A DNA stretch of 44,762 bases from a virus. Its lineage: Duplodnaviria > Heunggongvirae > Uroviricota > Caudoviricetes. The notes below the pieces were generated by a model, which saw nothing but the letters and a program-made list of their open reading frames with translations, did no database searches and was not told the DNA's origin. The first letter of the stretch is position 1; every line of letters begins with the position of its first letter. The translations under genes were made by a program, and so were the position numbers. The DNA is taken from IMG/VR virus record IMGVR_UViG_2541047697_000005, one strand, 5' to 3'. Positions 9,186 to 24,488 of this stretch are shown here, one piece after another.

Positions 9186-10694
9186 TTATTCTTCGGACTG
9201 GTCGTCGGTGTGCTGCGGCTCCTGTCGTTTCGTTGCGGCACTGCTGCCTCCTTTATCACTGGCCGGATCGGTATCAAATACCAGTTCCAGCTTGCGGTTT
9301 TCATCAATTTCGGCCTTGCGCCGACGTTTGACATCATCCGGATTACGACCACCAGCACGTACCCAGTCTGATTCTGTCGCCGCTCCACCACGAATCTGGA
9401 TTTTCCAGGCCTCAGCCTCCTTAACAGGGTCAATCCACGGCATCACTGGTCCGGAATACACCGCGGTATACAGTGAAGAACGGTCAAGATCGCGGGGTAA
9501 CCTGATAACACCGGATGCCACAGCCTGTTTCAGCCATGCACGATACATCGGGCGGGTGACGGCACCAATAAACCAGTCCTGCAGGATCAGGTAGCCATCA
9601 GTAGACTCAACCAGCTCCTGACGCTGGGCGCTGTAAGTGCCGTTATAGTTGCGCGCTGTACTGGAAAAACTCAGACGACTGCCAGCCGCCACTGCACGCA
9701 ACTGACCATTACGAAAAGTTTCAAGATTAGGATTGGGGCGATCCGACTTCACCATTCCAATTTCTTCGCCGGGTTTCAGATCGTCGTAAATAATGCCTGG
9801 CTGAATGGTAAGCTCGCGTTCCTTATCCTTGCTGCCATTACCATCCGGTTCATAGCTCTGCCCGTCGCCTTTGCGGATGTACATCCCCAGAGCAGCGGCG
9901 ATCCTTGCTGCAGTCAGCTCAGAATCTTCATACTCTTTCAGGGCACTGAGGCGGATCAGCACACCGGACAACAAAGACGTCCCGCGCATCTGGTGCAGAC
10001 GGCGAACAAATTTAAGATGCAGCATTCGCTCTGCATCCACTTCTTTGGTTTCCATCTGCCGTCCGGATACGGGACGGCTTTTATACACCAGATATTTTTC
10101 GGGACGCCCCCAGTCATCAACAAACACGCCCTGATTCAGCCTGTTGCTCTCATCACTGGTCATGGGAATAAAGTCTGGCTCGAGCGCCTCCAGCCAGAAA
10201 TGAACACCGGCAGAAGGCGTCAGGCTGTTTATGCGCCCGGAAACCATCTGGGCAAACACCTCACCATCGCGCAGCCAGGTACGCAGCATCAGACGTTCCA
10301 GCATCGGACGGGTAAACTGCCCGGTGACTTCCGGGCTGACAGACCATTCACTCCATCGGGTGCGAATCTCCGCTGCCAGATCACGGGCAATGGCCCCATT
10401 GCGTAATACCGGATGTGGCTCGACAATAATCCCGTTTTTCCCCACCACCCGTTCTTCCAGCTTGTCAAATACACCAATAACCAGATCGTGGTTGTTATCA
10501 AGGTAACGGGCCTGCTCACGTAACGACACGGCCCCGTACTGGCTTAACTGGTCGGCAGTTCGGTTTTCCCGCCGGGCTTTGTGTGTCCGCGTCGTTTTTA
10601 CGGCCTCATAAGCCTGGATCACCGCACGGGAACGCAGCCTTGCCGCTTTCCATCCTGGTGAAAAAACGCCAATCACATCATCAAGAATTGCCAT
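9186..10694 (-). CDS. Portal protein (lambda gpB family)
   Basis: About 500 aa between W and capsid; start at ATG 10694 overlapping W stop (ATGA); ORF-track start 10766 is probably too far upstream. Confidence 0.8.
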   Translation of the reverse strand: MAILDDVIGVFSPGWKAARLRSRAVIQAYEAVKTTRTHKARRENRTADQLSQYGAVSLREQARYLDNNHDLVIGVFDKLEERVVGKNGIIVEPHPVLRNGAIARDLAAEIRTRWSEWSVSPEVTGQFTRPMLERLMLRTWLRDGEVFAQMVSGRINSLTPSAGVHFWLEALEPDFIPMTSDESNRLNQGVFVDDWGRPEKYLVYKSRPVSGRQMETKEVDAERMLHLKFVRRLHQMRGTSLLSGVLIRLSALKEYEDSELTAARIAAALGMYIRKGDGQSYEPDGNGSKDKERELTIQPGIIYDDLKPGEEIGMVKSDRPNPNLETFRNGQLRAVAAGSRLSFSSTARNYNGTYSAQRQELVESTDGYLILQDWFIGAVTRPMYRAWLKQAVASGVIRLPRDLDRSSLYTAVYSGPVMPWIDPVKEAEAWKIQIRGGAATESDWVRAGGRNPDDVKRRRKAEIDENRKLELVFDTDPASDKGGSSAATKRQEPQHTDDQSEE

Positions 10695-10912
10695 CAGAAC
10701 CTCGCCAGCCGGTACCCGGGATGCCCCCGTCGTCGTGTAATCAGAGTCGCAAGGCGGCGCTCCCACTCCTGCCGTCCCTGCCGGATCTCAGATAAGTTTT
10801 CCATGGTCATCTGCTGACCATTAAAAGTGACGGATTTTCCGTCCAGCACCGCCATTTCAGCTTCCGTATAACGCTGAATCATGGCTTCAATATCATTCTG
10901 ATTCATAACCAT
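10694..10912 (-). CDS. Head-tail joining protein W-like
   Basis: 72 aa ending ...TRRRGHPGYRLARF, resembling lambda gpW C-terminus; between terL and portal. Confidence 0.65.
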   Translation of the reverse strand: MVMNQNDIEAMIQRYTEAEMAVLDGKSVTFNGQQMTMENLSEIRQGRQEWERRLATLITRRRGHPGYRLARF

Positions 10913-12015
10913 CCTCCGGAAGTCAGCCAGGGGTTAACATCGTCAGTTACTGTTTTCTTCCGTTTTTGTTTTTTAACAGGCGTGGGTACCGGTTCCGGTG
11001 AGGGTGACGGTTCGGTACTGTCCGGGACACACTCCAGCCAGGTTTCCCGGCTCGCCCACTCCGGTGCATCCGGCCAGCGGATCTTTTCGTATCCATGCAG
11101 AATGACCAGCGCCTCGGCATACACCATCAGGTCAAAAGCTTCGTTGGCACCGCGACCCGGCTTACTCCATTTCCCGTCACTGCTCCGCTCTTCATACGTC
11201 AGTTCGTCGTAAAACCAGCTCCCCAGCCAGTCAGGGAAATGCACATAGCCTGGACCTGGCGAGTCACGCCATAACGCGTTATTCACCCGGTCTTTCAGGG
11301 CATCCGTCTGAAGAAGCCAGAGCGGCACATCACCTGCGGCCTGCGCCCGGCGGCCCGTTCGTCCGGTGTTATCAGGGAATGTACGGCTGATCAGTTTTGC
11401 GCGCCGGATGCTGTCGCCCTTAAACAGGTAAATACGTTTACCAAGGCCATCACGACGGCAACGACGCCAGAATTTATAGGCATTATCAGTGACCCCGTCT
11501 TCACCGCCGGAGTCCACCGCCATTGCCATCAGTCGCATTTGTTGAGAAGGATCGGAGGCCAGCGGCCAGCTTTTATGAAAAACATCCGTCAGCAGGACAT
11601 CCCAGTCTTCCGGATAGCTGGCCGGATCAATTCGCTGGCTCTCCCCGTCGCAGTCACTGCGCAATGACTGCGTGATGTTGTAACGATCAATAATCCAGCG
11701 TTCGCCACGGCTGCCATAGCCCGTTACCTGAACCACAAAACGGCGATGACGTCCCGCCTGCACATCCACTGTCGCCACAAGGAAATTAACGCCATCCGGA
11801 ACACTGCGGGAAGGAACTGGCTCTGCCCGCTGCTCAAGCAGTTCACTTTTTCGTTGCTCCATGCTGGCACGAGGAAGATAAGGCAATCCCCAGTCGGTGT
11901 TGATAACCGCCCTGAGTGTTTCTTCGCTTCCTGTCGCTTCATACTCCTGTTCTGCAGTCAGTAATTTGTAAACCAGTTGCGCCCAGGTCTGATACGCAGC
12001 AGCTGGCCCTTCCAT
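10903..12015 (-). CDS. Terminase large subunit, C-terminal (nuclease) half; gene interrupted by the integrated element
   Basis: 370 aa starting MEGPAAAYQTWAQLV; lambda gpA-like C-terminal region; the ATG lies in the 7-bp repeat at the insertion junction; no ATPase domain in this ORF. Confidence 0.8.
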   Translation of the reverse strand: MEGPAAAYQTWAQLVYKLLTAEQEYEATGSEETLRAVINTDWGLPYLPRASMEQRKSELLEQRAEPVPSRSVPDGVNFLVATVDVQAGRHRRFVVQVTGYGSRGERWIIDRYNITQSLRSDCDGESQRIDPASYPEDWDVLLTDVFHKSWPLASDPSQQMRLMAMAVDSGGEDGVTDNAYKFWRRCRRDGLGKRIYLFKGDSIRRAKLISRTFPDNTGRTGRRAQAAGDVPLWLLQTDALKDRVNNALWRDSPGPGYVHFPDWLGSWFYDELTYEERSSDGKWSKPGRGANEAFDLMVYAEALVILHGYEKIRWPDAPEWASRETWLECVPDSTEPSPSPEPVPTPVKKQKRKKTVTDDVNPWLTSGGWL

Positions 12016-12019
12016 CCAG
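12013..12019. repeat. Left junction core CATCCAG (att core copy 1)
   Basis: Identical 7-mer at 22737-22743; terL homology ends here and AT-rich element DNA begins. Confidence 0.6.
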
Positions 12020-12261
12020 GAAGAAGTAAATAAAAGGTAACTAAATGATTATAAGGTACTATTTAGTTGTAACCCCATCCACATAGTCCAAGATTTAGTA
12101 CCTGCCTAAGCGATAAAAAAAAGAAAAAGGTAGCAATATTAATTAAAAGCTGAATACGCCGCCATGCATTAACACGATGACGCTGCCCGACTGCGCGGCC
12201 TTCTGTTTACCTTCTGGTAGTCTGATTCCGGTGGCACGGCGGATCACGGCGTCGTTCATTA

Positions 12262-12747
12262 TCATGCCTGTTTTACATCCTCATTCACTGCGTCATTTTT
12301 TACCATCCGGCTGATAATCTGATTACACAAATCGTCAATAATTGACTGCACTCTGTTTACTGCCATCGGTTTAAGCCCAGCATCACGTGCCAGAATACTG
12401 GGGAGTTTTTCCAGTTCCTCGCTTACGATTTCCCCCCATATAGCCATCTCTTTTCGCACATCATCGGCGGGTATGAGTTGCGCCGTTTCCTGTTCGAACT
12501 TGAGGCGCTCACGTTCGGACTGATACCAGGCCTTACGGTCGTGTGGCTCCATTTCTTCCAGTGATGCCGGAACGGGAAGATCAAGAAAACAGGTCAGAAT
12601 GTCAGTCACCCGATAGAGTTTCAGCTTGTCATGTCCTCCGGCTGGATGGATATTTTTTAGCCTTGCCGCCGCAGTCTGGCGACATATTCCCGCTATCGCC
12701 GCCAGCTGGTTAATGTTCAGCATCAGATTTTTCAGTTCCCGATCCAT
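12262..12747 (-). CDS. Small terminase subunit (Nu1-like) encoded by the element
   Basis: Start at ATG 12747 (MDRELKNLMLNINQLAAIAGI, HTH-like); KAWYQSERERLKFEQETAQLIP parallels KDWYQSENERIKLEKEQRKLIP of the helper terS at 23735-24274; a cos-like site lies about 150 bp upstream. Confidence 0.7.
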   Translation of the reverse strand: MDRELKNLMLNINQLAAIAGICRQTAAARLKNIHPAGGHDKLKLYRVTDILTCFLDLPVPASLEEMEPHDRKAWYQSERERLKFEQETAQLIPADDVRKEMAIWGEIVSEELEKLPSILARDAGLKPMAVNRVQSIIDDLCNQIISRMVKNDAVNEDVKQA

Positions 12748-12900
12748 ACCCGCTCCAGAATGTTTTAAACATGCATCTTGCAAATATCTTTTAAAAAAGG
12801 TCAAAAAACGCGCCGCATGTTGAACACAAAATAAGCAAAATTAACATACCAAAAATAAAAATACTTAAAATTCAATACAATAGAAAGATGATGATGACGA

Positions 12901-12975
12901 ATGAAAATGCAAAAACTAGCCTTTTTCCGCGCCGCTGCCGCCCCGTGGTAAGGCCACTCCACCGGGAGGACCCGT
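12901..12975 (-). repeat. cos-like site copy 1 (element, upstream of element terS)
   Basis: About 75 bp near-identical to 15438-15511 and 24416-24488; minus strand contains ACGGGGCGGCAGCGGCGCGGAAAAAG, resembling the lambda cos junction as I recall it. Confidence 0.65.
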
Positions 12976-12998
12976 AAAAAAAGGCGGCTATCGCCGCC
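12976..12998 (-). terminator. Rho-independent terminator after element capsid gene
   Basis: Minus strand GGCGGCGATAGCCGCC hairpin followed by TTTTTTT. Confidence 0.55.
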
Positions 12999-13005
12999 CT
13001 TGTTG

Positions 13006-14919
13006 TCATGCTCCACTCGATTTCAGTAGTCCACGATAATCGAGGGCCGCAACACCTGCATCTATGCGCACCTTCCAGGCGACACCATCAACAGTAAAGC
13101 CCTCCTGCTCCTCAAGATATGGCGTATCAATACCATCAAGATAAGCGACCTCTATCGTGTCCATCCCTTTCGCTGCGGCTACATACCACTCCTTGTTATT
13201 GTTCTTATCAAGACGTGGCTCAACAATAACCTCAGCCATATCTTTCACCACGTTAATGATGCCGGGGTTCTGATTGATAGTGCCATCACCATCAACCGGA
13301 AAGAGTGATGACGATGACAGAATGGCGCGATGTGCGGCAGACTCCAGCGCGGCGGGGACCAGGACAAATGCGGGGGTAATATTCAGCGAATCACCGTTAG
13401 CGTCCTCCTGGAGGCGCATCAGCTTACGGGCTTCGTTAAGCCCCTCCATGTCCATATCCTTCGCAATAAGATTTTTATGATCGGCATGGAATAGCGCCTT
13501 ACCATCCGTGAATTTGCCGTTGCCGGTTAACAGGAGATACACCAGATTACCTACTGTTCTGGCGGCTGCACGCCCCATCGCCATGGGGATTGTAGTTAAC
13601 TGGGTCAGGTCATCGTTAATAATGGCCTGGCGGGTAACGGAAAAAATATTCCCGTATGTGGCCAGCGCAATAGGTACGCCTTTATCTCTGGTGGTGATGT
13701 ATTTATATTCCGCACCTTCCGGTACTTTATCCAGCTTTGAAAAACCATTCAGACCAACACGCTTTGCTTCATGAAAGTTTGAAAGCGATCCGCTACGCGT
13801 CCACTTCTGGAACGTTTCGCCGCTGTCCTGCCAGCCTTTCAGAACTGATTTTTCAGCACCACCAGCCAGAATATGAGAAAAATCGCTGCTGCTGTGTGTG
13901 AAAGCTGCATTAACGACCTGCGAGCGATTTAAAAAACCGCCAACACTGATACCACGATCCGTTAGTGATGCCTGGGCCATTTCAAAAAGGCTCATCATCG
14001 CGTAAGGATTTCCCCGCTCTGGGCGTTCATACCCGAGACGAGAATAAAGCCCCTGACGAATTGCATCACCTGTTATGTTCCCGTTACCGGCATAAATATG
14101 AGCCGGGGTATTTTTATTTGATGGCGTGGACTCGCGCCCCATCTCGTTCAACAACTTTTCACGGGCCATCTCCGGTGTACATGATGCATCTTCCAGGCAC
14201 GCCATTTTGATCCCGTCGTAACGACTGCCGAACAGGCTAAACACTTCACTTATTCCGTTGATGCGCTTCTGTTCATTACCAGCAATATTGGCTGCTCCCT
14301 GTGGCGGGGTAATCATTCCTTTAATGGTTTCCGGCATGTGTGAAAAATCTCCTGTGCGTTTCGATTCAATTCGCGCCATTGCTCTGACGGATGGCAACAA
14401 TTCATCAGCAAAACCGTGCTTAAGGCATTCTTTCCCGTCCATCCAGGTTTCATCTTCCAGCATGGCGGTAATTTCCTGTGCTGATTTGCCCGTTTTTCTG
14501 GCATAAGCAGGGATTAACACGGTTTCCACCTTATCCAGCAAATCAGCATAATCACGCATATCACCAGCATTTCCGCCAGAGATACCCCACGGCTTATGTA
14601 TCATCATCATGGCGTTTTCCGGCATCACAACACGATCGCCAGCCATTGCGACAACCGAAGCCATTGAAGCCGCAACACCATCGATATAAACCGTAATTTC
14701 TGCCGGATGATTCCGTAACAGGTTATAGATGGCGATGCCTTCAAACACGTCACCACCTGGCGAATGGATCCGCAGGTCGATATGTGAGACATCGCCCAGG
14801 GCTTTCAGGTCTTCCGCAAACTGCTTCGCGGTGATACCGAAGCCGCCAATTTCTTCATAGATGGATATTTCTGCCGCTCCGCGAACACCCGCCGCCTTAA
14901 TGGTGTACCAGTGATTCAT
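13006..14919 (-). CDS. Second prohead protease-major capsid fusion protein (element copy)
   Basis: 637 aa colinear with the helper protein at 7214-9172; shared blocks include SPGGDVFEGIAI, MIHKP, EKLLNEMGRESTPSNKNTPAHIYAGNGN, RQAIINDDL, TIEVAYL. Confidence 0.8.
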   Translation of the reverse strand: MNHWYTIKAAGVRGAAEISIYEEIGGFGITAKQFAEDLKALGDVSHIDLRIHSPGGDVFEGIAIYNLLRNHPAEITVYIDGVAASMASVVAMAGDRVVMPENAMMMIHKPWGISGGNAGDMRDYADLLDKVETVLIPAYARKTGKSAQEITAMLEDETWMDGKECLKHGFADELLPSVRAMARIESKRTGDFSHMPETIKGMITPPQGAANIAGNEQKRINGISEVFSLFGSRYDGIKMACLEDASCTPEMAREKLLNEMGRESTPSNKNTPAHIYAGNGNITGDAIRQGLYSRLGYERPERGNPYAMMSLFEMAQASLTDRGISVGGFLNRSQVVNAAFTHSSSDFSHILAGGAEKSVLKGWQDSGETFQKWTRSGSLSNFHEAKRVGLNGFSKLDKVPEGAEYKYITTRDKGVPIALATYGNIFSVTRQAIINDDLTQLTTIPMAMGRAAARTVGNLVYLLLTGNGKFTDGKALFHADHKNLIAKDMDMEGLNEARKLMRLQEDANGDSLNITPAFVLVPAALESAAHRAILSSSSLFPVDGDGTINQNPGIINVVKDMAEVIVEPRLDKNNNKEWYVAAAKGMDTIEVAYLDGIDTPYLEEQEGFTVDGVAWKVRIDAGVAALDYRGLLKSSGA

Positions 14920-15125
14920 TGCTCACCCCCAGATGCAAAACCATTCTTATCAAGCCACGCGTTAACTGCGTGTCTGACAATCTGCGCCACACCTGGTAAT
15001 GGTTGGCCAGGATGATGATTTATGTGGTCGATCCTGTACTGCTTAAGGCGCATAACGGTCTGCGCATCCAGATGAACGGAACCACCTCTTACCTCGCCTG
15101 TGTTCAGGTCATTAATACAATTCAC
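14916..15125 (-). CDS. Hypothetical 69-aa protein translationally coupled to the element capsid gene
   Basis: GTG start with AAGAGGAAG RBS; its stop overlaps the capsid ATG; no family recognised. Confidence 0.45.
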   Translation of the reverse strand: MNCINDLNTGEVRGGSVHLDAQTVMRLKQYRIDHINHHPGQPLPGVAQIVRHAVNAWLDKNGFASGGEQ

Positions 15126-15227
15126 AGTAACTTCCTCTTACTGACTAAACTGCGTGCATTATTGATCGATAAAAGTGGTAGATAAACATATTTCTATCAT
15201 AAAAACAGATTAGTCAGATTCAGACAC

Positions 15228-15250
15228 AAAAAAGCCGGAGAAAATCCGGC
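15228..15250 (-). terminator. Rho-independent terminator
   Basis: Minus strand GCCGGATTTTCTCCGGC hairpin followed by TTTTTTGT. Confidence 0.5.
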
Positions 15251-15285
15251 ATAAATATCCCGCCATCTGAACACGTTTTGACACT

Positions 15286-15511
15286 GGCAACTCCACCTGG
15301 CAGGTGAAAAACATATTTATTTATATATTTCAATTAATTACAAACTGGTCTAATGACAGGGCGAAAAAAATATTGTACAGGTGAAAACGGAAATATTTTT
15401 TAATTATCAATAAATTATCACACATGCTGCCGCCGCCATGAAAATGCAAAAACCAGCCTTTTTCCGCGCTGCTCCCGCCCCGTGGCAAGGCCACTCCATC
15501 GGGAGGACCCG
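15286..15511 (-). repeat. cos-like site copy 2 (element), extended ~225 bp duplicate of the helper cos region
   Basis: Near-identical to 24265-24488 including the AT-rich segment and a stub of the terS 5' end (GTGGAGTTGCCAGTGTCAAAACGTG vs helper ATGGAGTTGCTTATGTCAAATGTG). Confidence 0.65.
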
Positions 15512-15512
15512 T

Positions 15513-15534
15513 AAAAAAGCCGGATTGTTCCGGC
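15513..15534 (-). terminator. Rho-independent terminator after ssb
   Basis: Minus strand GCCGGAACAATCCGGC hairpin followed by TTTTTT. Confidence 0.55.
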
Positions 15535-15550
15535 TTCTGTCACTCGTTGC

Positions 15551-15973
15551 TTAAAACGGTATGTTATCCCCGTACGGATCATCATTTCCCGCCTGTTGTT
15601 TTGCCCTGTTCAGCGCGTCAGTAGCCTGGCCCTGCTGGCCTTTTTTGCCGCCCGGTCGCGCCGTTCTCGCACTGATTACGCTGTCTGCGATGACCTGCCA
15701 GCCCTGCCGCGTTTCGCCGTTCTGGCCTGTCCACTGGCTTACCTGCATGTTACCCGCCACGCTCACCAGTTCGCCTTTATGGTGTCTGGCCAGTGCGTCG
15801 GCCTGTCTGCCAAACGCCAGGACGGATAACCACATCGTCGCCGTTCCGTCATCTGCCTGGCTGCACGGCAGGGAAACCGCCATACTCGCCATCGCCATTG
15901 TTGTGCCCTTGCTGGTGGTCTTTAACTGCGGGTCAGCCACCAGCCGCCCGTAAGCCGCTATCTGTGCTGTCAT
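15551..15973 (-). CDS. ssb: Single-stranded DNA-binding protein
   Basis: 140 aa, Gly/Gln-rich tail ending DDPYGDNIPF (SSB C-terminal acidic motif). Confidence 0.75.
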   Translation of the reverse strand: MTAQIAAYGRLVADPQLKTTSKGTTMAMASMAVSLPCSQADDGTATMWLSVLAFGRQADALARHHKGELVSVAGNMQVSQWTGQNGETRQGWQVIADSVISARTARPGGKKGQQGQATDALNRAKQQAGNDDPYGDNIPF

Positions 15974-16227
15974 GCTGTATGCTCTCCGGTTTTAACGTTG
16001 ATGGTTGTCACCTGTTCCGCTTCGGCAATCTCCCGATCTGTCAGCGTGGCAAAGTTTGCCGCCGCTGTGGTCATGAATGCGCTTATCAGTTCGGGATGTG
16101 CTTTCGCGTATCCCTCTCCCGTGTTGCGGTCGATGATTTTTATCGCCATCCTCAGCCAGTGCTCTGTAAGGTCAATGGCGCGGTTATGTGGTTTCTTCTG
16201 ATTGTTAAATTTTCCTGATGTGTGCAT
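15970..16227 (-). CDS. Hypothetical protein
   Basis: 85-aa ORF overlapping ssb start; no family recognised. Confidence 0.4.
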   Translation of the reverse strand: MHTSGKFNNQKKPHNRAIDLTEHWLRMAIKIIDRNTGEGYAKAHPELISAFMTTAAANFATLTDREIAEAEQVTTINVKTGEHTA

Positions 16228-16261
16228 TTTTATTTTTACCCCCCTCGTTTAAAAAGTTTTG

Positions 16262-16505
16262 AGTTGTACCTCCCCTTGTCTACCTTATCTACCTTGCTGG
16301 CCCCAATGCCAGTAATGGCGCGGCTTTCAGCGGGGTAGAGTGCTTTTATCCACTATCTACCCCGTATCTACCTCCCTGTCTGATTCAGGTAAAATCAGGT
16401 AGAGAGGGTAGATAGTAGGTAGATAGTGAAAAAATGCTGTCTACCTAAGTTAATGTACTGAATTAAATGTATTTTCCTTTACTCAGGTAGACAGGGTAGA
16501 CAGCC
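16262..16505. repeat. Iteron array, putative replication origin of the element
   Basis: At least 10 copies of an 8-9 bp unit RGGTAGAYA / TRTCTACC in both orientations, immediately downstream of the primase-helicase gene. Confidence 0.65.
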
Positions 16506-16516
16506 ATTGCAAAAAA

Positions 16517-18271
16517 TTATAAAAACGCGTCGCAATCGTCTGTTGTTATTGCGTTAGTCTGCGTTACCCCCTTAACTTTCCGCGTAATATATTCATGTCC
16601 GTAAACTTTCGCGGCGGGCTTCATAGCCTTGCCAAAGTCATTTACGTTCAGCGGTTTGGTCCTGCCTGCGTAAGCCATAAACGCCAGATAGACACGGTAA
16701 AGGCTGTTCCTGGTTGTGTACTTCACGGAATCACCACCGCCGCCCATCATCAGGCCACGCGCTTCCTCCAGAAAATTCAGGAACTGGCAAAACTCAATAA
16801 CTGGATCCGTTTGCTGCTTTATCGCCAGTGCTTCATCACCGTCACGCTGTTCCAGTAGTAAAGCCCGTGCCTTCTCAGGGTCGGTAAAGTTCGCCAGCAA
16901 TCGGCGGATAATAACGGGGATTTCAGCCGCAATCTTTTCCGGTAGCTCCCTGTCTTTTTCGGCCTCACTGACGATATTGTCGAAACGGAAAATCACGCGA
17001 CGACGTGCCACACCTCCGGCACGTTCGGTGAATATCATCGGGTTGTTGTTGGTCGCCAGCACCACCGCCCTGATTACCGCCGTGAAACGCTTTTCATATT
17101 TCGGGTTAATTTCCACGGGGTCGCCGCCTGTGATTTTCTTGATGCCCGTTCCTTCTCCTGTATATTTCGGCTGGTCAGCCAGGACGATAAGACGACTCCC
17201 GACAACCTGCGCACGTCCACCAGCATCATCAAGCGATGTCATTTCAGCGCTTACCGTGTTCTGTTTCCCTGCCAGAAGGCTGGCTATGTGTGTGAATGTA
17301 CTTTTACCGCTCCCGCCGTCTCCGGTGGCCTCAATAAACATCTGCCAGTCGTACCGGTTCGCCATAATCATGTACAGCGCGGCACATATACGCATCATCT
17401 TGCGCGGGTCTTTTCCGGCTGCGTGCTCAAGCCATTTATGAAAGTTTGGCGCGTTATCGCGGATGTTTTCCCCTGGTGCTGGTAGCGTGTACTCAATGCC
17501 GTTGTGCGTGGTGATCCAGTTCTCCGGCGTGTGCGGGGAAAATTCCCCCGTTTTCAGGTCAAGCGCACCATTGGCGAACGGCAGCAAATCGCCGGACGGC
17601 TCGCCCATTGGTTCGGCAATAACTTTTAACGCTTCCACGGCGTTATTGATTACGCGCTTGCTGAAAGTGGCCCTGTGCTCTGAATAGATCGCCACCATTT
17701 CGCGGCTAAGTTCCATTGTGCTGACCTGACACCATACCCCGCCGCGCCATACGTGAACGATTTCACTTTCAGGATGTACGCAAACGCCATCAAAGCGATC
17801 GGCTAGCAGCTGCGCGCGCTCACTGTCCGCCATCTGCGAAAGTTGCGCCTTTTGCTTTACCGGAAGCTCAATGACCAGACCATCAGAAAGATTCTGGCGC
17901 TCACGGGCCAGATATTCGCGCCAGTTCTGCACCTCCTGGCCGTGCATACCCTCAGGATAAAAATTTGCATCCTGTACGCCTGCCGCCGCCAGCTTCTGAC
18001 CAATCGCCTTTATCATTACTGGCGCAAGATATCCGGCCCTGAATATGCGCACGGATTTTCTGCCTTCCGGCACAATTTGCAGCTTATCCAGTTCGGATAA
18101 CTGCTGCTCCCCAAGCCACACAGGAGGCTCATTATCTCCGGCCATACGCGCGTCATGTTCCTGCCATTGTTTTGCGTGTGACCAGGCATCACTACCCGCA
18201 AAAATAATTACCTCTGTGTCTTTGTTTTTTATTCCGCGAGGCTGTTTTTTTACGTTCGGTGCCAGTTTCAT
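16517..18271 (-). CDS. Primase-helicase (P4 alpha / D5-family)
   Basis: 584 aa with Walker A GDGGSGKST; P4-type primase C-terminal region; adjacent iterons. Confidence 0.8.
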   Translation of the reverse strand: MKLAPNVKKQPRGIKNKDTEVIIFAGSDAWSHAKQWQEHDARMAGDNEPPVWLGEQQLSELDKLQIVPEGRKSVRIFRAGYLAPVMIKAIGQKLAAAGVQDANFYPEGMHGQEVQNWREYLARERQNLSDGLVIELPVKQKAQLSQMADSERAQLLADRFDGVCVHPESEIVHVWRGGVWCQVSTMELSREMVAIYSEHRATFSKRVINNAVEALKVIAEPMGEPSGDLLPFANGALDLKTGEFSPHTPENWITTHNGIEYTLPAPGENIRDNAPNFHKWLEHAAGKDPRKMMRICAALYMIMANRYDWQMFIEATGDGGSGKSTFTHIASLLAGKQNTVSAEMTSLDDAGGRAQVVGSRLIVLADQPKYTGEGTGIKKITGGDPVEINPKYEKRFTAVIRAVVLATNNNPMIFTERAGGVARRRVIFRFDNIVSEAEKDRELPEKIAAEIPVIIRRLLANFTDPEKARALLLEQRDGDEALAIKQQTDPVIEFCQFLNFLEEARGLMMGGGGDSVKYTTRNSLYRVYLAFMAYAGRTKPLNVNDFGKAMKPAAKVYGHEYITRKVKGVTQTNAITTDDCDAFL

Positions 18272-18555
18272 TTCTTACCCCCTGCGACCAGCATTTCACG
18301 GATTTTGCGGATATAGCTTGCTGCACGTTTCTGATTTACGGCTTTACGATGGCCCACCAGCTTAAAATCACGCCGGAACTGATAAACAGGCATCACGCAG
18401 TCGTAGCTGTACCCATCACGGCGGTAAGTAACGCACCGTCCGGCAATACTTTTAATCGTTACCGTGCCGCCGTAGTTATCCCGGAAAATATCGCCGGGGC
18501 GGATTTCAGGCCGAGCGGGGCCGCTGGCAGTAAAGCCAGAAATTTTCTGTTTCAT
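18268..18555 (-). CDS. Hypothetical protein
   Basis: 95-aa ORF, stop overlaps primase start. Confidence 0.45.
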   Translation of the reverse strand: MKQKISGFTASGPARPEIRPGDIFRDNYGGTVTIKSIAGRCVTYRRDGYSYDCVMPVYQFRRDFKLVGHRKAVNQKRAASYIRKIREMLVAGGKK

Positions 18556-18560
18556 GGTTT

Positions 18561-18770
18561 TTATTCCTCTGCGCGGGTCTTGTTGTGTATTTCCATAACC
18601 GCGTTTAATTCATCAATAACCGGGGTTAACAGAGTGCTGAAAGCAGAAAATAAATCCCCCCCCTGTTCGGCATGAACTTCGGTTAATTTAATTAATACCG
18701 CTTTCATTTCCAGTGCCCGATTTAATGCATTCTCAGAATGAATAAGAACATCGAAAGGGATTTCATTCAT
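18561..18770 (-). CDS. Hypothetical protein
   Basis: 69-aa ORF in operon context. Confidence 0.4.
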   Translation of the reverse strand: MNEIPFDVLIHSENALNRALEMKAVLIKLTEVHAEQGGDLFSAFSTLLTPVIDELNAVMEIHNKTRAEE

Positions 18771-18996
18771 GGCTCACCACCTCCGGGAATTTTCTTCTGT
18801 AACGCGCCTCTGCAACATATTCCGCATAGTCCGACGCAATATTGAGAATATCGCTACCCGTTCCTGAATGTTCGGCGGTTTCCAGTAAAAAACATGCAGC
18901 TTTTACCATGTCAGCAACACATAACAGCGCAATATCTGTATCTTCCGGTGCGCCATCAAATTCCTGTTTCAGGGCATTAAAACGATCATCACGCAT
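18763..18996 (-). CDS. Hypothetical protein, possible downstream part of a gene split at a poly-G tract
   Basis: 77-aa ORF whose ATG sits 2 nt after a G12 run; one extra G fuses it with the ORF at 18969-19232. Confidence 0.4.
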   Translation of the reverse strand: MRDDRFNALKQEFDGAPEDTDIALLCVADMVKAACFLLETAEHSGTGSDILNIASDYAEYVAEARYRRKFPEVVSHE

Positions 18997-19232
18997 AACC
19001 CCCCCCCCCCATTTTCACAATCCGTAATCAGGATGGCTTTAGCCTCATTCAGCGCCATATCAGCGGTAAGCTGTGCGTAGGCCAGCGAATGGGGGATTAT
19101 TGCCCCTGTATATTCCGGCTCTCTGGTAATGTGTTTTTCTGCGGTTGCTGCCGTGCATGAAATATCAATCAGCGCGTGCATCAGCGTTCTGATAGCTTCG
19201 GCGGCTGCGTCCTGACGGGGGTTATTGCACAT
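18969..19232 (-). CDS. Hypothetical protein, possible upstream part of a gene split at a poly-G tract
   Basis: 87-aa ORF translating the G12 run as GGGG and ending 9 codons later. Confidence 0.4.
   Translation of the reverse strand: MCNNPRQDAAAEAIRTLMHALIDISCTAATAEKHITREPEYTGAIIPHSLAYAQLTADMALNEAKAILITDCENGGGGLCVMIVLMP
18999..19010. repeat. Homopolymer C12 (G12 on coding strand)
   Basis: 12 consecutive C on plus strand. Confidence 0.95.
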
Positions 19233-19488
19233 GGCGCACCTCCTGACGAATACGGGCGGCGAATACCATCACGCAGCCAGCCGGAGATTGCTGGCGTGCT
19301 TCCTGTTCGCTGGTGGCCTCGATGGTAATCACGCGCGGCTGTGCCGTGCTCAGGGCGATAAAACGCCAGATGTATTTATTCAGGTTGTGCGAGTCCCGCC
19401 CTTGCGGGTGTGTGGTATGATTTCTCATAGCTACCTCGATACGCTTTCTATCGTTGGTGGTTAGAAGCCCTGCGAGTGGTAACGACAC
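19222..19488 (-). CDS. Hypothetical protein (first gene of the element leftward operon)
   Basis: 88-aa ORF starting next to the divergent regulatory region. Confidence 0.4.
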   Translation of the reverse strand: MSLPLAGLLTTNDRKRIEVAMRNHTTHPQGRDSHNLNKYIWRFIALSTAQPRVITIEATSEQEARQQSPAGCVMVFAARIRQEVRHVQ

Positions 19489-19525
19489 TTGCGGGGCTTT
19501 GTCTTTTCATCGATTACCTTAACAA

Positions 19526-19608
19526 AGGTGTCAGCCACTATATTAGTAACAGGTGTCAGCCACGTCAATGGTGTTTTTCCGTTTTCTTGTGTGTATACTG
19601 TCAGCCAC
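19526..19608. promoter_or_regulatory. Divergent regulatory region with three direct repeats GTCAGCCAC and a TATACT -10 element
   Basis: GTCAGCCAC at 19530, 19555, 19600; first two extended as AGGTGTCAGCCAC; TATACT at 19594-19599 abuts the third repeat, 30 bp before the ATG at 19630. Confidence 0.5.
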
Positions 19609-19629
19609 CTAATAACGAGGGAATCCGAT

Positions 19630-19809
19630 ATGGCAACGAAAGCAGTTAATGGAAAATCCAAAAAACTTGAGGCTCGAGTACCCCACGCAATAGCTGACGC
19701 TGTAGAAAATTTAAAGGAAGAAGGCGAAAGCACAGGGCAATTTATCGTTTCGGCACTTGAAGGCGAGATCAAACGCCGCCAGCGTCGCAAGGCCAAAGAG
19801 CAGGAGTAA
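19630..19809 (+). CDS. Small ribbon-helix-helix-like DNA-binding protein, candidate regulator of the element
   Basis: 59 aa MATKAVNGKSKKLEARVPHAIADAVENLKEEGESTGQFIVSALEGEIKRRQRRKAKEQE; ACGAGGGA RBS; downstream of operator repeats. Confidence 0.5.
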   Translation: MATKAVNGKSKKLEARVPHAIADAVENLKEEGESTGQFIVSALEGEIKRRQRRKAKEQE

Positions 19810-19866
19810 CCATCACCAGCGCCGTGGTGCGGTGAACTGTGGCGCACAGGGCTACAGGTATCTACG

Positions 19867-20064
19867 ATGACTGACAAATCATTAAAGAAATTATCTTCAT
19901 CCAGGAAAAAACAACGCAAAAACGCGGTAAGCGAACAAGAACAGGAGAGATTCGCGCCATGTGCGTTTGTCCTTGAGAAGTTCTTAAAAGAGTACAGGCG
20001 CACAAAAATGGGGCTATATACCTGGAAAACATCGCAGCATGGCGATGCTAAAGAGCAGGAATAG
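19867..20064 (+). CDS. Hypothetical small basic protein
   Basis: 65-aa ORF following the RHH gene; weak RBS. Confidence 0.3.
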   Translation: MTDKSLKKLSSSRKKQRKNAVSEQEQERFAPCAFVLEKFLKEYRRTKMGLYTWKTSQHGDAKEQE

Positions 20065-20291
20065 CCCACCAGCAAGCCAGCACACTGATCACATTGCCAA
20101 CCGGATGTAATCACGGCATAGTAATCAGCGCTCATGCGTTGGGGATAACGTGTAGCTTGTGTCGAATGGCCACCGTAGCAGGTGGCCTTTGTTTTGCCTG
20201 TTATCCGGCAATTGTGGCGCTTCTCCACACGGTTGATATAATCCCCCTGCACAGATTCATTTTTTGCGCAGTAGGTTAATTGTTCGCAAGG

Positions 20292-20322
20292 GCGCTCCGG
20301 CAACGGGGCGCTTTTTGTTTTT
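20292..20322 (+). terminator. Rho-independent terminator
   Basis: GCGCTCCGGCAACGGGGCGC hairpin followed by TTTTTGTTTTT. Confidence 0.55.
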
Positions 20323-20480
20323 ACCCACCAGCACAATAAAAATCCTCTTTTCCCATTTTTGTAAAATTTCATGCTTTCCGGACGACTGGCCATATATCTT
20401 TTTTAGCAGAAGATTTTGCCTTGCTGGTTGGTAGCTTCCCGGTCCAACACGATGTACCGTATAATCAGCACTGCGAGTGG

Positions 20481-21059
20481 TTACTGAATACGCTCACCAA
20501 AGTAAAACTCAGGCTGATATTCACGTATCAGCCTTTTTTCTTCTTCCTCCAGCTCACGCTTTTTGCGCTTACAGGCCTGTAGCTCCCTCCCCTTCTCGCT
20601 GGCACTTATCTGATATTGCTCTTTACGGCGAGAAAAATCCTGTAATGCGCCCCACGGGATACCATAAGCCCCCGTTTTTCTGATACCCGGTATCACATTT
20701 CTGAATACCCAGTTACTGAAACGATGAGCAAATGTGCCAGGCGTCGTTGCTTTGCGGCTGCGGGCTATTAGTTTGTAGAAACCTGACTCAGAGATAATGC
20801 TCATATTCTGATTTCCTCCTGGGGTGTAAGTTAAATTTACTCCCTTTTCATCATCATCAAGCATCTGCAACGCCGTACGCGAATTGGTTAGTTCCAGCGC
20901 AGCACAAACATCTTTTGCAACAAACCACGGATCGCCGTTCAGATACACCACACGAACATCCACGCCATCAAAGCGCAGAACGACAAGATCACGAATATCG
21001 CAGAATTTTTTTACTGAACGAGCGTACCCCTTGCCCGTCACGGCAATATTTTTATTCAT
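20481..21059 (-). CDS. Bro-N domain protein (antirepressor-like)
   Basis: N-terminus LVVLRFDGVDVRVVYLNGDPWFVAKDVCAALELTNSRTALQMLDDDEKG matches the Bro-N pattern. Confidence 0.7.
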   Translation of the reverse strand: MNKNIAVTGKGYARSVKKFCDIRDLVVLRFDGVDVRVVYLNGDPWFVAKDVCAALELTNSRTALQMLDDDEKGVNLTYTPGGNQNMSIISESGFYKLIARSRKATTPGTFAHRFSNWVFRNVIPGIRKTGAYGIPWGALQDFSRRKEQYQISASEKGRELQACKRKKRELEEEEKRLIREYQPEFYFGERIQ

Positions 21060-21117
21060 CGTTTTTTACCTCACATACAAAAAACCCCGCATTGCGTGCG
21101 GGGTATGAAAGATATTA

Positions 21118-21321
21118 TTAGTGGGGATTGGCCTGTTCTCGTTGTTTATCTAACCATGCCTCTACATCTCTACGGTGCCAGGTATGCCGCCGCCCAATTC
21201 TGAACGGTTGAGGAAAACCATTATTTTCATCTTTCCAGAAATTGATGAATGCGCTCATTGCCCCATAGCGCAAAATTTTCATTACGTCTTTAGTAAATAA
21301 AATATCTTCATTGGTATTCAT
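21118..21321 (-). CDS. alpA: AlpA-family transcriptional regulator/excisionase
   Basis: 67 aa; MKILRYGAMSAFINFWKDENNGFPQPFRIGRRHTWHRRDVEAWL resembles AlpA; adjacent to integrase. Confidence 0.75.
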   Translation of the reverse strand: MNTNEDILFTKDVMKILRYGAMSAFINFWKDENNGFPQPFRIGRRHTWHRRDVEAWLDKQREQANPH

Positions 21322-21333
21322 TTGCTGAACTCC

Positions 21334-22572
21334 TCAACCATTTACTATTCTCAAACCTTTCTTACCACAGGATCTATTAATTACCCCTTTTCTCGCCTCA
21401 TCAAAAAAATCGCCTACCCATTGCATCATAATTTTGCGTTGTTCTAAATAAGTAGTTCTATTATAAATATCTCTTATTTTATCACCACTTTTATGTGCTA
21501 ATGCAGCCTCAATAACATCAGGGTTAAAACCCTCCTCATTTAAAAGCGTACTCCACATCGAACGAAAACCATGTAACGTTACAATCCCTTTGAACTTGCT
21601 GGCAGCAATTGGAGTATTGATAGTATTCCTCCCCATAGGCGCGTCTTTGGTTCTGGATGAATAGAATACATAACGCCCTCTTTTAATTTCCTGCATTGTT
21701 CTGAGGATGCTAATGGCCTGTGATGACAGGGGCACAACATGTTCACGATGGCATTTCATTTTATGCTCAGGGATAACCCACAGACCAGCATCAAAATCTA
21801 TCTCTGCCCACTCTGCCTGGATCGCCTCTCCAGGCCTGACCATTGTCAATATCTGGAATAAAAGCGCATTGTGAGCTATTTGATACTTATGAGGCACACT
21901 ATCCCACCAACTCAGAAATTCAGGTAATTTTTCTATAGGTAACGCTGCTAATAATTTATTTTTCTTTCCAGTGAATGCTGTCTTTATTTTAAGCAATGGA
22001 TTTATTTTCAATGCACCACAATTTACAGCGTAATTCATAATTTCATTTAATCTTGATATTAATTTTTTTTGCAGCGCGTTTTTATCAGATACGGCATCCA
22101 GTGCCTTAATTGCTAATGGTGCTGTAATTTTATCTATGCTGTATTTACCAAAGAAAGGAACAAGATACTTATATACTTCATATTCGATATTATACAACGT
22201 AGGTTTCCTCAACTCCGATCCTTTTTTAAAAGCGAACCATGCATTAGCAACGACTTCAAATGTCTGTAGATTTTTTAGCGCCATCTCAATTTTACGATTT
22301 TTCTTCTCTGTCACTGGATCAACTCCACGTGCAATCATTCGCCGAAGTTCATCACGTACTTCCCGTGCTTCCGCGAGTGAGAATTCAGGAAAACGCCCTA
22401 TCGTGTATGTCTGCCGTTTCTTCGTTATCGGATGGCTATAACGGAAACGCCACACTTTCCCACCAGCTTTACTCACATTCAGCAATAAACCGAACCCATC
22501 ATAAACGGCATAGTCCTTTTCACGTGGTTTCATTCCCTTAACTTCAGTCACGGTTAATGGCTTTACCGGCAT
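21334..22572 (-). CDS. Tyrosine integrase (P4 / CP4-57 IntA type) of the element
   Basis: 412 aa with P4-int-like N-terminus (GKVWRFRYSHPITKKRQTYTIGRFPEFSLAEAREVRDELRR) and C-terminal catalytic region (HGFRSMWSTLL...); AT-rich; next to the junction. Confidence 0.8.
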   Translation of the reverse strand: MPVKPLTVTEVKGMKPREKDYAVYDGFGLLLNVSKAGGKVWRFRYSHPITKKRQTYTIGRFPEFSLAEAREVRDELRRMIARGVDPVTEKKNRKIEMALKNLQTFEVVANAWFAFKKGSELRKPTLYNIEYEVYKYLVPFFGKYSIDKITAPLAIKALDAVSDKNALQKKLISRLNEIMNYAVNCGALKINPLLKIKTAFTGKKNKLLAALPIEKLPEFLSWWDSVPHKYQIAHNALLFQILTMVRPGEAIQAEWAEIDFDAGLWVIPEHKMKCHREHVVPLSSQAISILRTMQEIKRGRYVFYSSRTKDAPMGRNTINTPIAASKFKGIVTLHGFRSMWSTLLNEEGFNPDVIEAALAHKSGDKIRDIYNRTTYLEQRKIMMQWVGDFFDEARKGVINRSCGKKGLRIVNG

Positions 22573-22733
22573 CTATCGCCCTCATTTTTTAGTCCGTCAT
22601 GTAGTCCTTTCAAGTCGATAACAAGCGATAAACTAACTCATTATCAAGTAAAGAGAGGAAACACCAAAAATCACAACTCATTGAAAAGACTACAAAACGA
22701 CACCAGAACATAAAAACAGGTAAGAAATGTACC

Positions 22734-23726
22734 CTACATCCAGAAACTGGCGATACGGGAGCGGCGCGGTTCACCGGAAACGTTGCCGTTACGATCAATG
22801 ACCTGACCTTCACGCAACCAGACTCCTGCACTATTGAGCTCACGCTTTTTCTCCGCAGTGATAATGCCGCTGCAGTGCGGGCAAAGTAGATACGCCGCCT
22901 CACTGGCTTTAAAGGGATCCGGTTCATTACGGTAGCCGGTCATGGCATCCATAGCTGGCTGAAAATATTCACCGCAGTGCGGACATGGCCAGTACCAGCG
23001 GCGGCGGTCACCACGATTGTAAAGGGAAAGAATACCAGTCGTCGGTGGCGCTTCATGAGGCGACTTACGTCGCCATTTGCTGTCGCAGATGTCACGTCCC
23101 GGCGAGCTCTCCACCAGAGTCATCCCGGCGGACATAAATGTGGTGGTACGTTTTGAGGCCAGGGAGAAACCATCACCCTCGCTGTCGATATTCTCCGGAA
23201 AACGGTCGTAATCGGTTAAGGCGACAAACCGGTAATCCGACGACGACATAATGTTGACCGAGGGCCAACCAATTTTAAGGAACGAGCCATCCCTGAACGT
23301 CTTATCATGGACATTATTGTCGTTACGACGTGGACTCATTCTTTTCTTTACCGCCGCACTGCTTCTGAACGTTCTGTCGAGGCGCTTTTTAGAATGCTCG
23401 CGGGCCTTATCTTCGGTCATCTGCACAACGAGCATGTCCGAAGGATCGCAAACGATGGTATAGACAATCCATCCATCGATCAGACCAATGGTCTTCCCTG
23501 TTCGCGCAGGACCAACAAAAATCACCGCATCGTATTCACGCGATGCCAGGCAGTTCATGGGCTCAATGATGTAGGGTGTCAGTTCAGGATCCCATGGCAC
23601 CGAGTTACCAGCCCCCTTGGGAACACGCATGAATTTTTTAACAGCCTCCGAAATCGGCATGCGACGTGGTGGGGAAAATCCTGCCGATATGTCCCTTCCC
23701 AAATTTCGGGCTGATGAAAAACCCAT
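22734..23726 (-). CDS. Terminase large subunit, N-terminal (ATPase) half; gene interrupted by the integrated element
   Basis: 330 aa with FVGPARTGKT P-loop, WPCPHCGEYF and LLCPHCSGII motifs paralleling lambda gpA; ends ...RIASFWM followed by stop in element-derived sequence. Confidence 0.8.
   Translation of the reverse strand: MGFSSARNLGRDISAGFSPPRRMPISEAVKKFMRVPKGAGNSVPWDPELTPYIIEPMNCLASREYDAVIFVGPARTGKTIGLIDGWIVYTIVCDPSDMLVVQMTEDKAREHSKKRLDRTFRSSAAVKKRMSPRRNDNNVHDKTFRDGSFLKIGWPSVNIMSSSDYRFVALTDYDRFPENIDSEGDGFSLASKRTTTFMSAGMTLVESSPGRDICDSKWRRKSPHEAPPTTGILSLYNRGDRRRWYWPCPHCGEYFQPAMDAMTGYRNEPDPFKASEAAYLLCPHCSGIITAEKKRELNSAGVWLREGQVIDRNGNVSGEPRRSRIASFWM
22737..22743. repeat. Right junction core CATCCAG (att core copy 2)
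   Basis: Identical 7-mer to 12013-12019; terL N-half reading frame terminates (TAG) 1 codon into element DNA. Confidence 0.6.
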
Positions 23727-23734
23727 TATTCCTC

Positions 23735-24274
23735 CTAGAGACTCTCTCCTTCCTCATCAGGAATTAATTCAGCAGCACAAGCCTCGTAGGATTTTTCCTG
23801 AAGAGTGTATCGCAGGTCATCAATGGCCTGCTGTACAACGCCGACGGCCTGAGGAGTCAGGGCGCAATCGCGTTCAAGAACATCCGGAATTGTCTCCAGA
23901 ACCTGGACGACAGCCTTTCTCATGGACGAATAGACGATGACTACTTCATCAACTGGGATGAGTTTTCGCTGCTCCTTTTCCAGCTTGATCCTTTCATTTT
24001 CAGACTGGTACCAGTCCTTTCTCTCTTTCGGCTCCATACGGGATGGATCATGAACAGAGTCTGCTGCCTCATGCTTCACACTAAACAGGGCGGGCCCGAC
24101 ATGCTGCAGGGCGTAAACGGGGTTCCCCCTGACAGTCGCAGCCACAGGAGTGTTGGCCGCGAGGAGCCGTTTTTTTACTGTGTCCCGGTGAAGCCCAAAG
24201 GCCTCGGCGATTTTAAAAACACTCCAGTAATAAGCATCACCGATCCCGCTCACATTTGACATAAGCAACTCCAT
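23735..24274 (-). CDS. Small terminase subunit (Nu1-like) of the helper prophage
   Basis: 179 aa, N-terminal HTH-like region, immediately upstream of terL and downstream of cos. Confidence 0.75.
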   Translation of the reverse strand: MELLMSNVSGIGDAYYWSVFKIAEAFGLHRDTVKKRLLAANTPVAATVRGNPVYALQHVGPALFSVKHEAADSVHDPSRMEPKERKDWYQSENERIKLEKEQRKLIPVDEVVIVYSSMRKAVVQVLETIPDVLERDCALTPQAVGVVQQAIDDLRYTLQEKSYEACAAELIPDEEGESL

Positions 24275-24488
24275 CTGGCAGGTGAAAATCAGGTTTATTT
24301 ATATATTTCAATTAATTGCAAACTGGTCTAATGACAGGGAGAAAAAAATATTGTACAGGTGAAAAGAGAAATAACTTTTAATTATCAATAAATTACCAAA
24401 CATGCTGCCGCCGCCATGGAAATGCAAAAACTAGTCTTTTTCCGCGACGCTCCCGCCCCGTGGCAGGGGCCCCCACCGGGAGGACCCG
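24275..24488 (-). repeat. cos-like site copy 3 (helper prophage cos, upstream of terS)
   Basis: Minus strand contains CCACGGGGCGGGAGCGTCGCGGAAAAAG plus AT-rich segment, located between lysis-side genes and terS as in lambda. Confidence 0.7.

Follow-up and report, generated by a model that had tools for sequence, protein, structure and literature searches.

A hypermutable G homopolymer at the Shine-Dalgarno position of an overlapping gene pair in an Escherichia coli phage satellite

The virus record IMGVR_UViG_2541047697_000005 of IMG/VR (Duplodnaviria; Heunggongvirae; Uroviricota; Caudoviricetes) is a stretch of DNA of 44,762 nucleotides, which in its whole length is called the window here. 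It carries a phage satellite of the PICI (phage-inducible chromosomal island) or P4-like kind, in Escherichia coli, and in one operon of this satellite two small genes on the minus strand meet at an uninterrupted run of 12 G. An earlier note on this DNA had placed the run at 18999-19010, where one open reading frame (ORF) ends and the next begins, and both the sequence and the ORF list confirm it. The upstream gene, ORF A (18969..19232, minus strand), encodes 87 amino acids (aa) and ends in ...CENGGGGLCVMIVLMP*, the last nine residues of which, LCVMIVLMP, are a frame-dependent tail. The downstream gene, ORF B (18763..18996, minus strand), encodes 77 aa that begin with MRDDRFNALKQ, from an ATG of its own at 18994-18996, 2 nt past the tract. 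Read on the minus strand, the surroundings are ...GATTGTGAAAAT-G12-TTATGCGTGATGA..., which in the minus strand of 18600-19400 is spelled out at the tract as ...GATTGTGAAAAT GGGGGGGGGGGG TTATGCGTGATGATCG... The same 12 letters supply a run of Gly codons near the C-terminal end of ORF A and occupy the Shine-Dalgarno (SD) position of ORF B.

The number of G decides how the two genes are arranged. At G12, as in the window, they overlap by 28 nt in different frames, a layout shared with G9 and belonging to all lengths divisible by three. Lengths that leave a remainder of one (G7, G10, G13) join A and B in frame as ...ENGG(G)(G)VMRDDRF..., while those that leave a remainder of two (G8, G11) let A terminate at ...GYA* with an 8-nt overlap between A and B (ATGCGTGA). 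The earlier note had its frame arithmetic right in stating that 10 or 13 G would fuse the two ORFs, but the product is shorter than the ~165 aa it gave: 155 aa are predicted at G10 and 156 aa at G13, and the fusion proteins in databases have 154, 155 or 156 aa. From base composition, 0.004 G/C runs of at least 12 are expected in the window. G/C runs of at least 8 occur only twice in its 44.7 kb, both times within this operon.

Among related elements the tract is polymorphic. A pattern scan of IMG/VR, in which the flanks TGTGAAAAT and TTATGCGTGATGA were required, returned 90 stretches, and the census of IMG/VR and E. coli loci comprises 24 tracts of G7, 36 of G8, 18 of G9, six of G10 and two of G11, together with 11 interrupted variants. 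Dereplication of the pure tracts by flank haplotype leaves 21 of G7, 31 of G8, 15 of G9, six of G10, three of G11 and one of G12. This distribution is smooth and unimodal with its mode at G8, and it is without 3-nt periodicity. Expressed as frame states, the dereplicated alleles comprise 41 with the 8-nt overlap (46%), 27 fused (31%) and 20 with the 28-nt overlap (23%). Over about 100 related E. coli satellite copies the range is G7 to G13, the longest being the fusion allele of a metagenome protein (P0046), and in complete E. coli genomes the lengths inferred from alignment spans run from 7 to 11, five of them verified by sequence. A pattern scan of a one-genome-per-species contig collection gave a single real match, in Shigella flexneri, besides a chance match in Dongia.

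Annotation follows the tract. In complete genomes RefSeq records a single coding sequence (CDS) of 465-468 nt in loci with G10 (L002 and L003) or G7 (L005), and two overlapping CDSs of 240-261 nt and 234 nt in others (L004 with G8, L006 with GGTG8 and L001 with GGTG6). Elements of the O157:H7 type, which are ~76% identical, have G7 and a fused CDS of 154 aa. The tract is thus not fixed among homologues, and fused and split states are both annotated.

The earlier note had also called tracts of this length hypermutable and had offered a homopolymer sequencing error as one way to account for the split ORFs. Comparison of tract length with flank divergence bears on both. Pairs of loci with identical 600-nt flanks have the same tract length in 80% of cases and differ in the rest, whereas pairs with one or two mismatches in the flanks agree in 22%, against a background of 27%; one or two substitutions in the flanks are enough to randomise the length. 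Two loci (L118 and L111) have no mismatch to the window in 1,000 nt, yet carry G9 where the window has G12. Such differences on identical flanks are at most indirect evidence of frequent, reversible switching in clonal populations. The tract is hypermutable, as claimed, and its length changes far faster than substitutions accumulate in its flanks.

That the true length in the window differs from G12 through a sequencing or assembly error is something we consider extremely unlikely. Such an error would be no surprise in itself: no uninterrupted tract among the ~100 loci of the panel exceeds G12, long homopolymers are error-prone on several sequencing platforms, and the closest relatives carry G9. 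However, an independent short-read Logan assembly of SRR784978, whose contig was seen in 4 samples, is 100% identical over 6,264 nt and includes both the G12 tract and the shorter G8 tract of the operon, so that a one-off assembly error is unlikely. Because pairs with identical flanks agree in 80% of cases, the lengths are reproducible rather than sequencing noise, and G10, G11 and G13 alleles are known elsewhere. One base more or fewer would in any case leave the main conclusion on the locus unchanged.

A locus at which one gene and two genes alternate raises the question of which layout is the original one. An exhaustive HMMER search of representative proteins yields a small family of 47 clusters, whose distant members are mostly stand-alone N-terminal halves (72-93 aa, ending ...HA*) and stand-alone C-terminal halves (75-78 aa), with few fusions. 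The halves also occur in other company: in one relative (L102) A is present without B and is followed directly by a homologue of the 69-aa gene that comes after B in the window, in two others (L105 and L106) the gene that comes after A, across the same G-rich junction (GAAAATGGGGGGGGCGATTATG), is unrelated, and in one protein (P0125) B is joined to a different N-terminal partner. Because the distant halves stand alone and A and B pair with other partners, the comparison of homologues indicates that two separate, modular genes are the ancestral layout and that the fusion is derived from it and tolerated. In PHROGs there are families both for the fusion (phrog_2512) and for each half, all of "unknown function"; A corresponds to phrog_5146 or to the N-terminal half of phrog_2512, and B to phrog_24341 or to the C-terminal half. 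In the AlphaFold2 model of the fusion (mean pLDDT 69, pTM 0.44) two helical modules with helical hairpins are predicted, A being such a hairpin, and the segment at the tract is a linker with pLDDT below 50.

Both modules appear to be maintained whatever the frame. Within each frame state, ~90% of loci have an intact ORF B (73 or 77 aa), and the ratios of non-synonymous to synonymous substitution rates (dN/dS) of A and B, 0.24 and 0.23, do not differ between alleles that are currently fused and those that are split. Two distant proteins belong beside this picture as an observation of their own: P0155 (77 aa) is a stand-alone N-terminal half ending in ...ADIKNAPGDNEYE*, and P0164 (144 aa) has the same N-terminal half fused to a B-like C-terminal half through ...ADIKNAPGIMSMNN..., which suggests, from the two sequences, that genes were fused or split independently at the corresponding junction of this distant lineage.

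The reverse view is that the real gene encodes a single protein of 154-156 aa and that the split alleles, the window included, are inactivated by frameshift, either pseudogenised or transiently OFF. Fused CDSs of 154 or 155 aa are widespread, for instance in the O157:H7-type elements with G7, fused forms dominate the top matches of protein searches, and phrog_2512 is a full-length family. We nevertheless regard this as very unlikely. The distant relatives encode the halves separately with a canonical 8-nt overlap, A is found without B and B with other partners, and about two thirds of the alleles are split with both ORFs intact and a dN/dS of ~0.23. Interrupted tracts, in which the frame is expected to be stabilised, lie in split frames in six of six distinct alleles, a result that is not significant (chance ~0.1).

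What the tract does at the junction is suggested by the other junctions of the operon. Coupled gene pairs in phage and satellite operons have an SD inside the upstream gene, with a stop/start overlap that reads ATGA or ATGNNTGA. One design is common to four of the five junctions examined in this operon: the SD lies inside the end of the upstream gene and is followed by a short spacer and an ATG that overlaps the upstream stop; at each overlapping junction the SD is 4-8 nt upstream of the start. This can be seen between the Icd-like gene and A (cAGGAGGTGcgccATGTGCAATAA), between B and the 69-aa gene (cGGAGGTGGTGagccATGAATGA) and between the DUF4222 gene and the primase (cAGGGGGTaagaaATGA). The exception is the junction from the 69-aa gene to the DUF4222 gene, where the genes do not overlap and the SD is weaker (-6.0 kcal/mol). 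At the junction of A and B, 2 nt separate the G run from the ATG of B, and the predicted duplex of the run with the anti-SD of 16S rRNA has -11.1 kcal/mol at every length from G7 to G12, compared with a predicted -9.4 to -11.6 kcal/mol at the other SD-type junctions of this operon and its relatives. In place of the tract, which with its flanks reads AAATG(n)TT in the E. coli clade, distant relatives show CAGGAGGTGGGGC-ATG or CAGGGGGCGCACC-ATG, with a canonical SD (AGGAGGTG or AGGGGG). Their A proteins end in ...HA*, encoded by CAT GCN TAA/TGA with the ATG of the next gene inside, and the 8-nt stop/start overlap (ATGCGTGA) that results is the one found in G8 and G11 alleles, compared with 28 nt in the window. 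Since the predicted anti-SD pairing equals that of the other junctions and an SD stands at the same position in distant relatives, the tract, which occupies the SD position of B, most likely also serves as its SD. A lone G12 run cannot make a standard intramolecular quadruplex.

Other junctions of this kind are not exempt from fusion. In two E. coli proteins, P0032 (219 aa) and P0034 (222 aa), the gene upstream of A is fused to A-B through ...QGCIMCNN..., and in one locus (L001, 1490-1495) the junction upstream of A has a G6 SD (CAGGGGGGACGCCATG). Fusion by frameshift therefore happens at further G-rich coupled junctions of the operon as well.

On balance we lean, with a little more confidence than doubt, towards an unstable homopolymer at a translationally coupled junction of the early, replication-side operon, in which the SD has turned into a G run and the frame is near-neutral. 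A and B would originally have been separate, with the SD inside the 3' end of A and a short stop/start overlap (ATGCGTGA). In the E. coli clade the SD of B would then have turned into a pure G run that also codes for a Gly linker. We favour this course of events because the distant relatives have separate genes with an SD and an 8-nt overlap, and because A and B have other partners. Slipped-strand mispairing at replication would alter the length of the tract, so the locus would drift among three states: the 8-nt overlap of canonical coupling, the 28-nt overlap with a junk tail of 9 aa on A, and an A-Gly(n)-B fusion, in which two independently folding helical modules would be tethered by a flexible Gly linker. 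B would initiate independently from its own ATG and SD in each of them. All three states would be tolerated because B carries start signals of its own and the effect on A is limited to a short tail or a tether, and the frame would be close to neutral because both ORFs are intact, dN/dS is ~0.23 in every state and the lengths are without 3-nt periodicity.

Several points weigh against this interpretation. A tract of at least 7 G is kept across alleles that are only ~76% identical; such a tract exceeds what an SD needs and is unusual for E. coli, and some selection may act to keep it, which is more in line with a contingency locus than with pure drift. The window and its closest relatives are in the same frame, since G9 and G12 differ by 3 nt, and this could reflect selection on the frame in this sublineage. 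The independent start of B and the harmlessness of the tail or fusion of A are inferred. The census has its own weaknesses: the flank requirement in most of it would miss alleles with an altered start codon, and some length differences among the panel genomes could be assembly errors. Nor do the proteins themselves point to a function, as a Pfam search of A, B and the fusion was without match, and Foldseek against PDB and BFVD found nothing with E below 0.5 and only generic helical hairpins such as ATP-synthase c subunits.

The instability could also be put to use, as the earlier note had proposed in suggesting a phase-variable switch. Here, selection would favour toggling between separate and fused A and B, perhaps with the next gene going ON and OFF, and would thereby give reversible heterogeneity among lysogens. 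The two long G tracts, the sole G/C runs of at least 8 in the window, are in the same operon and both vary in relatives; at least 7 G are conserved across diverged alleles; length evolves far faster than the flanks; and the fused and split states are both frequent. Moreover, in the split states ribosomes that translate A pass the start of B by 8 or 28 nt, and therefore the level of B and the stoichiometry of A to B should differ between states. We still rate adaptive switching as unlikely. Because B retains its start and SD, the first tract appears to lack an OFF state for either gene; there is no 3-nt periodicity, no state is enriched beyond the G8 mode, and selection is equal between states. 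Nor can a phenotype be tied to the states. The literature retrieved on simple-sequence phase variation concerns mainly Neisseria, Campylobacter, Helicobacter and Bordetella; for E. coli it yielded an A7/A6 shift in kpsC and NeuO of prophage CUS-3. A switch in the ON/OFF sense is accordingly not supported for the first tract, given a start and SD for B in every state, equal purifying selection and the missing periodicity.

The second tract differs in this respect. It is a G8 at 18656-18663 on the minus strand, 340 nt downstream of the first, inside the 69-aa gene (18561..18770), where it encodes part of a predicted loop, ...HAEQGGDLF... In relatives it is G5, G7, G8, G9 or G11. Lengths that keep the frame add or remove one Gly (69 or 70 aa), and lengths that do not either cut the gene to 47-52 aa or have it annotated as "frameshifted". 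Judged from these reading frames, the second tract, unlike the first, can switch its own gene off. Both tracts together might be a contingency system of the satellite, in which the junction retunes B and tethers A to B while the second tract acts as an ON/OFF switch, and this we hold to be decidedly unlikely. If true, clonal lysogens would always hold sub-populations that differ in satellite induction, replication or interference with the helper, and a mobile element in a mismatch-repair-proficient enterobacterium would practise bet-hedging driven by simple-sequence repeats.

Variation in the DNA need not be the only way to the fusion. A -1 ribosomal frameshift on the G run, or slippage of RNA polymerase to G13, could give some A-B fusion from the G12 allele, next to separate A and B: the ORFs overlap, and B lies at -1 with respect to the frame of A in alleles whose length is divisible by three. 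SD-like runs within genes are able to stall ribosomes and promote frameshifting, as in dnaX and prfB. Little credence, if any, attaches to such recoding here. To our knowledge G GGG GGG is not among the established slippery heptamers, and all three genomic frames are common, so that no out-of-frame arrangement is conserved. The downstream RNA is without stable structure, and a frameshift-stimulating fold was rejected, as the 111-nt region was no more stably folded than its shuffled counterparts (z = 0.31). In transcriptome-wide E. coli data, insertions at homopolymers were all in A or T runs and G/C runs were judged not to be slippage-prone, although no native run there reached 12 (PMC5574713).

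The operon that holds the tract includes, upstream of A, an Icd-like or repressor-like gene (19222..19488, minus strand; annotated in relatives in RefSeq), which shares 11 nt with ORF A, the SD AGGAGGTG lying upstream. After A and B comes the 69-aa gene, the third small gene of the operon and a member of phrog_2196 (18561..18770, minus strand), which has an 8-nt overlap with ORF B (ATGAATGA) and the SD GGAGGTGGTG upstream. Downstream lie the DUF4222 gene (18268-18555, minus strand) and a D5_N/DUF5906 primase gene (16517-18271, minus strand), joined to each other by an ATGA overlap with a GGGGGT SD. The satellite further contains, at its opposite end, an integrase gene (21334-22572) together with a Bro-N gene, and it has a ClpP+capsid fusion (13006-14919), a small-terminase-like DUF1441 gene (12262-12804) and, further along, an SSB gene. 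An integrase, a primase-replicase and capsid-related and small-terminase-like genes thus share an island of ~10 kb, which identifies it as a satellite; the term is used generically here, without reference to the P4-specific psu, delta, sid and epsilon. An AlpA gene is present in one relative (L110). The A-B region was matched in 452 of 5,426 complete E. coli genomes. The identical element was not found among complete E. coli genomes, the best matches having 88-93% identity over 68-78% of the query, and the comparison is hence based on mosaic relatives and on look-ups of exact proteins.

Upstream of the operon, a minus-strand ORF of 310 aa (19461-20393; 291 aa in the version of a gene caller) has a Cys/Ser-rich translation that does not resemble a protein and overlaps two small plus-strand ORFs (19489-19809 and 19867-20064), whose 3' ends repeat each other (CAGC..AAAGAGCAGGA, ...AKEQE*). 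In relatives a YlcI/YnfO-family gene is annotated in this region on the strand opposite to the operon. The long ORF is probably spurious, and the region is likely to be the divergent regulatory region of the satellite.

The position of the satellite is also worth recording. It spans ~12016-22733 and separates the halves of the large subunit of a lambda-type terminase (window ~10903-24274), namely a GpA_ATPase ORF (22734-23726, minus strand) and a GpA_nuclease ORF (10903-12015, minus strand), which are flanked by the DUF1441 gene of the prophage itself (23735-24274) and its portal gene (9186-10766). Because the element sits between these two ORFs, the satellite appears to be integrated inside terL of a lambdoid prophage. 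At least 85 complete E. coli genomes have the junction between the terL ATPase half and the integrase with at least 99% identity; in EC42405 and UTAK-5 the two satellite junctions are found in one genome. Satellite integration inside prophages has been reported (mentioned in PMC10085698). A 214-nt stretch upstream of the small-terminase-like gene of the prophage (24255-24468) is repeated in the satellite at 15277-15490 with 90% identity, and an 81-nt core of it has a third copy at 12901-12981, upstream of the DUF1441 gene of the satellite; the DUF1441 proteins of prophage and satellite are 49% identical over 75 residues. The repeated stretch may mimic a cos or packaging site of the helper.

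The locus belongs to a known class, that of hypermutable homopolymer loci. In poly-G contingency loci the length of a tract can decide whether two adjacent ORFs are read as one. Like the poly-G/C loci of Campylobacter, Neisseria, Haemophilus, Helicobacter and Bordetella, the junction described here has a coding G tract of at least 7 with a length that is polymorphic among near-identical strains, a change of frame fuses or splits ORFs, and there is more than one tract in the gene cluster. Unlike them, it is found in a phage satellite of E. coli and not in a gene for surface structures or restriction-modification, its tract marks a coupled junction, where it probably also acts as SD for the gene downstream, and the first tract appears to lack an OFF state. 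Surveys of simple-sequence contingency loci are available (PMC2831843, PMC1891110, PMC5084427). Our literature searches on PICI and P4-like satellites, for poly-G tracts or phase variation, brought up no description of this locus, and one on indel rates at homopolymers in E. coli gave nothing of direct use.

As in other coupled pairs, the SD-like element ends 2 nt before the ATG, and in alleles with a remainder of two the stop of A comes just after the start of B. The difference is that the SD is here a pure homopolymer of up to 12-13 G, which makes the coupling geometry genetically unstable, and that the overlap in the window is 28 nt rather than 8 nt. Two cases in E. coli are close in mechanism: the reversible A7/A6 homopolymer frameshift of kpsC (PMC13410964) and NeuO, the phase-variable O-acetyltransferase of the K1 prophage CUS-3 (PMC3046976). 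In both, as would apply here, a change of frame is attributed to slipped-strand mispairing, and NeuO is carried by a prophage. In contrast to these ON/OFF switches with a known phenotype, capsule production or modification, both products should persist at the satellite locus. The OrfA/OrfB/OrfAB products of the IS3 family and dnaX, where ribosomal frameshifting or transcriptional slippage occurs on A runs (PMC1088944, PMC5009743), resemble the locus in that overlapping ORFs are expressed separately or fused by a shift of one base at a homopolymer. There the genomic arrangement is conserved. At the satellite locus it is the DNA that varies, through all three frames, and a stimulatory structure is missing.

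The same locus is annotated across E. coli genomes as one gene, as two genes or as "frameshifted", and it is split over three PHROG families; a hypermutable junction explains why annotation is inconsistent. If the state of the frame is neutral, the locus would mainly be a caution for gene callers and a fast-evolving marker for typing. Long poly-G tracts are rare in E. coli, and the presence of two variable ones in the replication-side operon of a widespread satellite family raises the question of whether enterobacterial mobile elements use simple-sequence variation. For the satellites themselves, the junction of A and B would be a natural example of how the SD of a coupled gene pair turns into a homopolymer and so drives repeated fusion and fission of genes.

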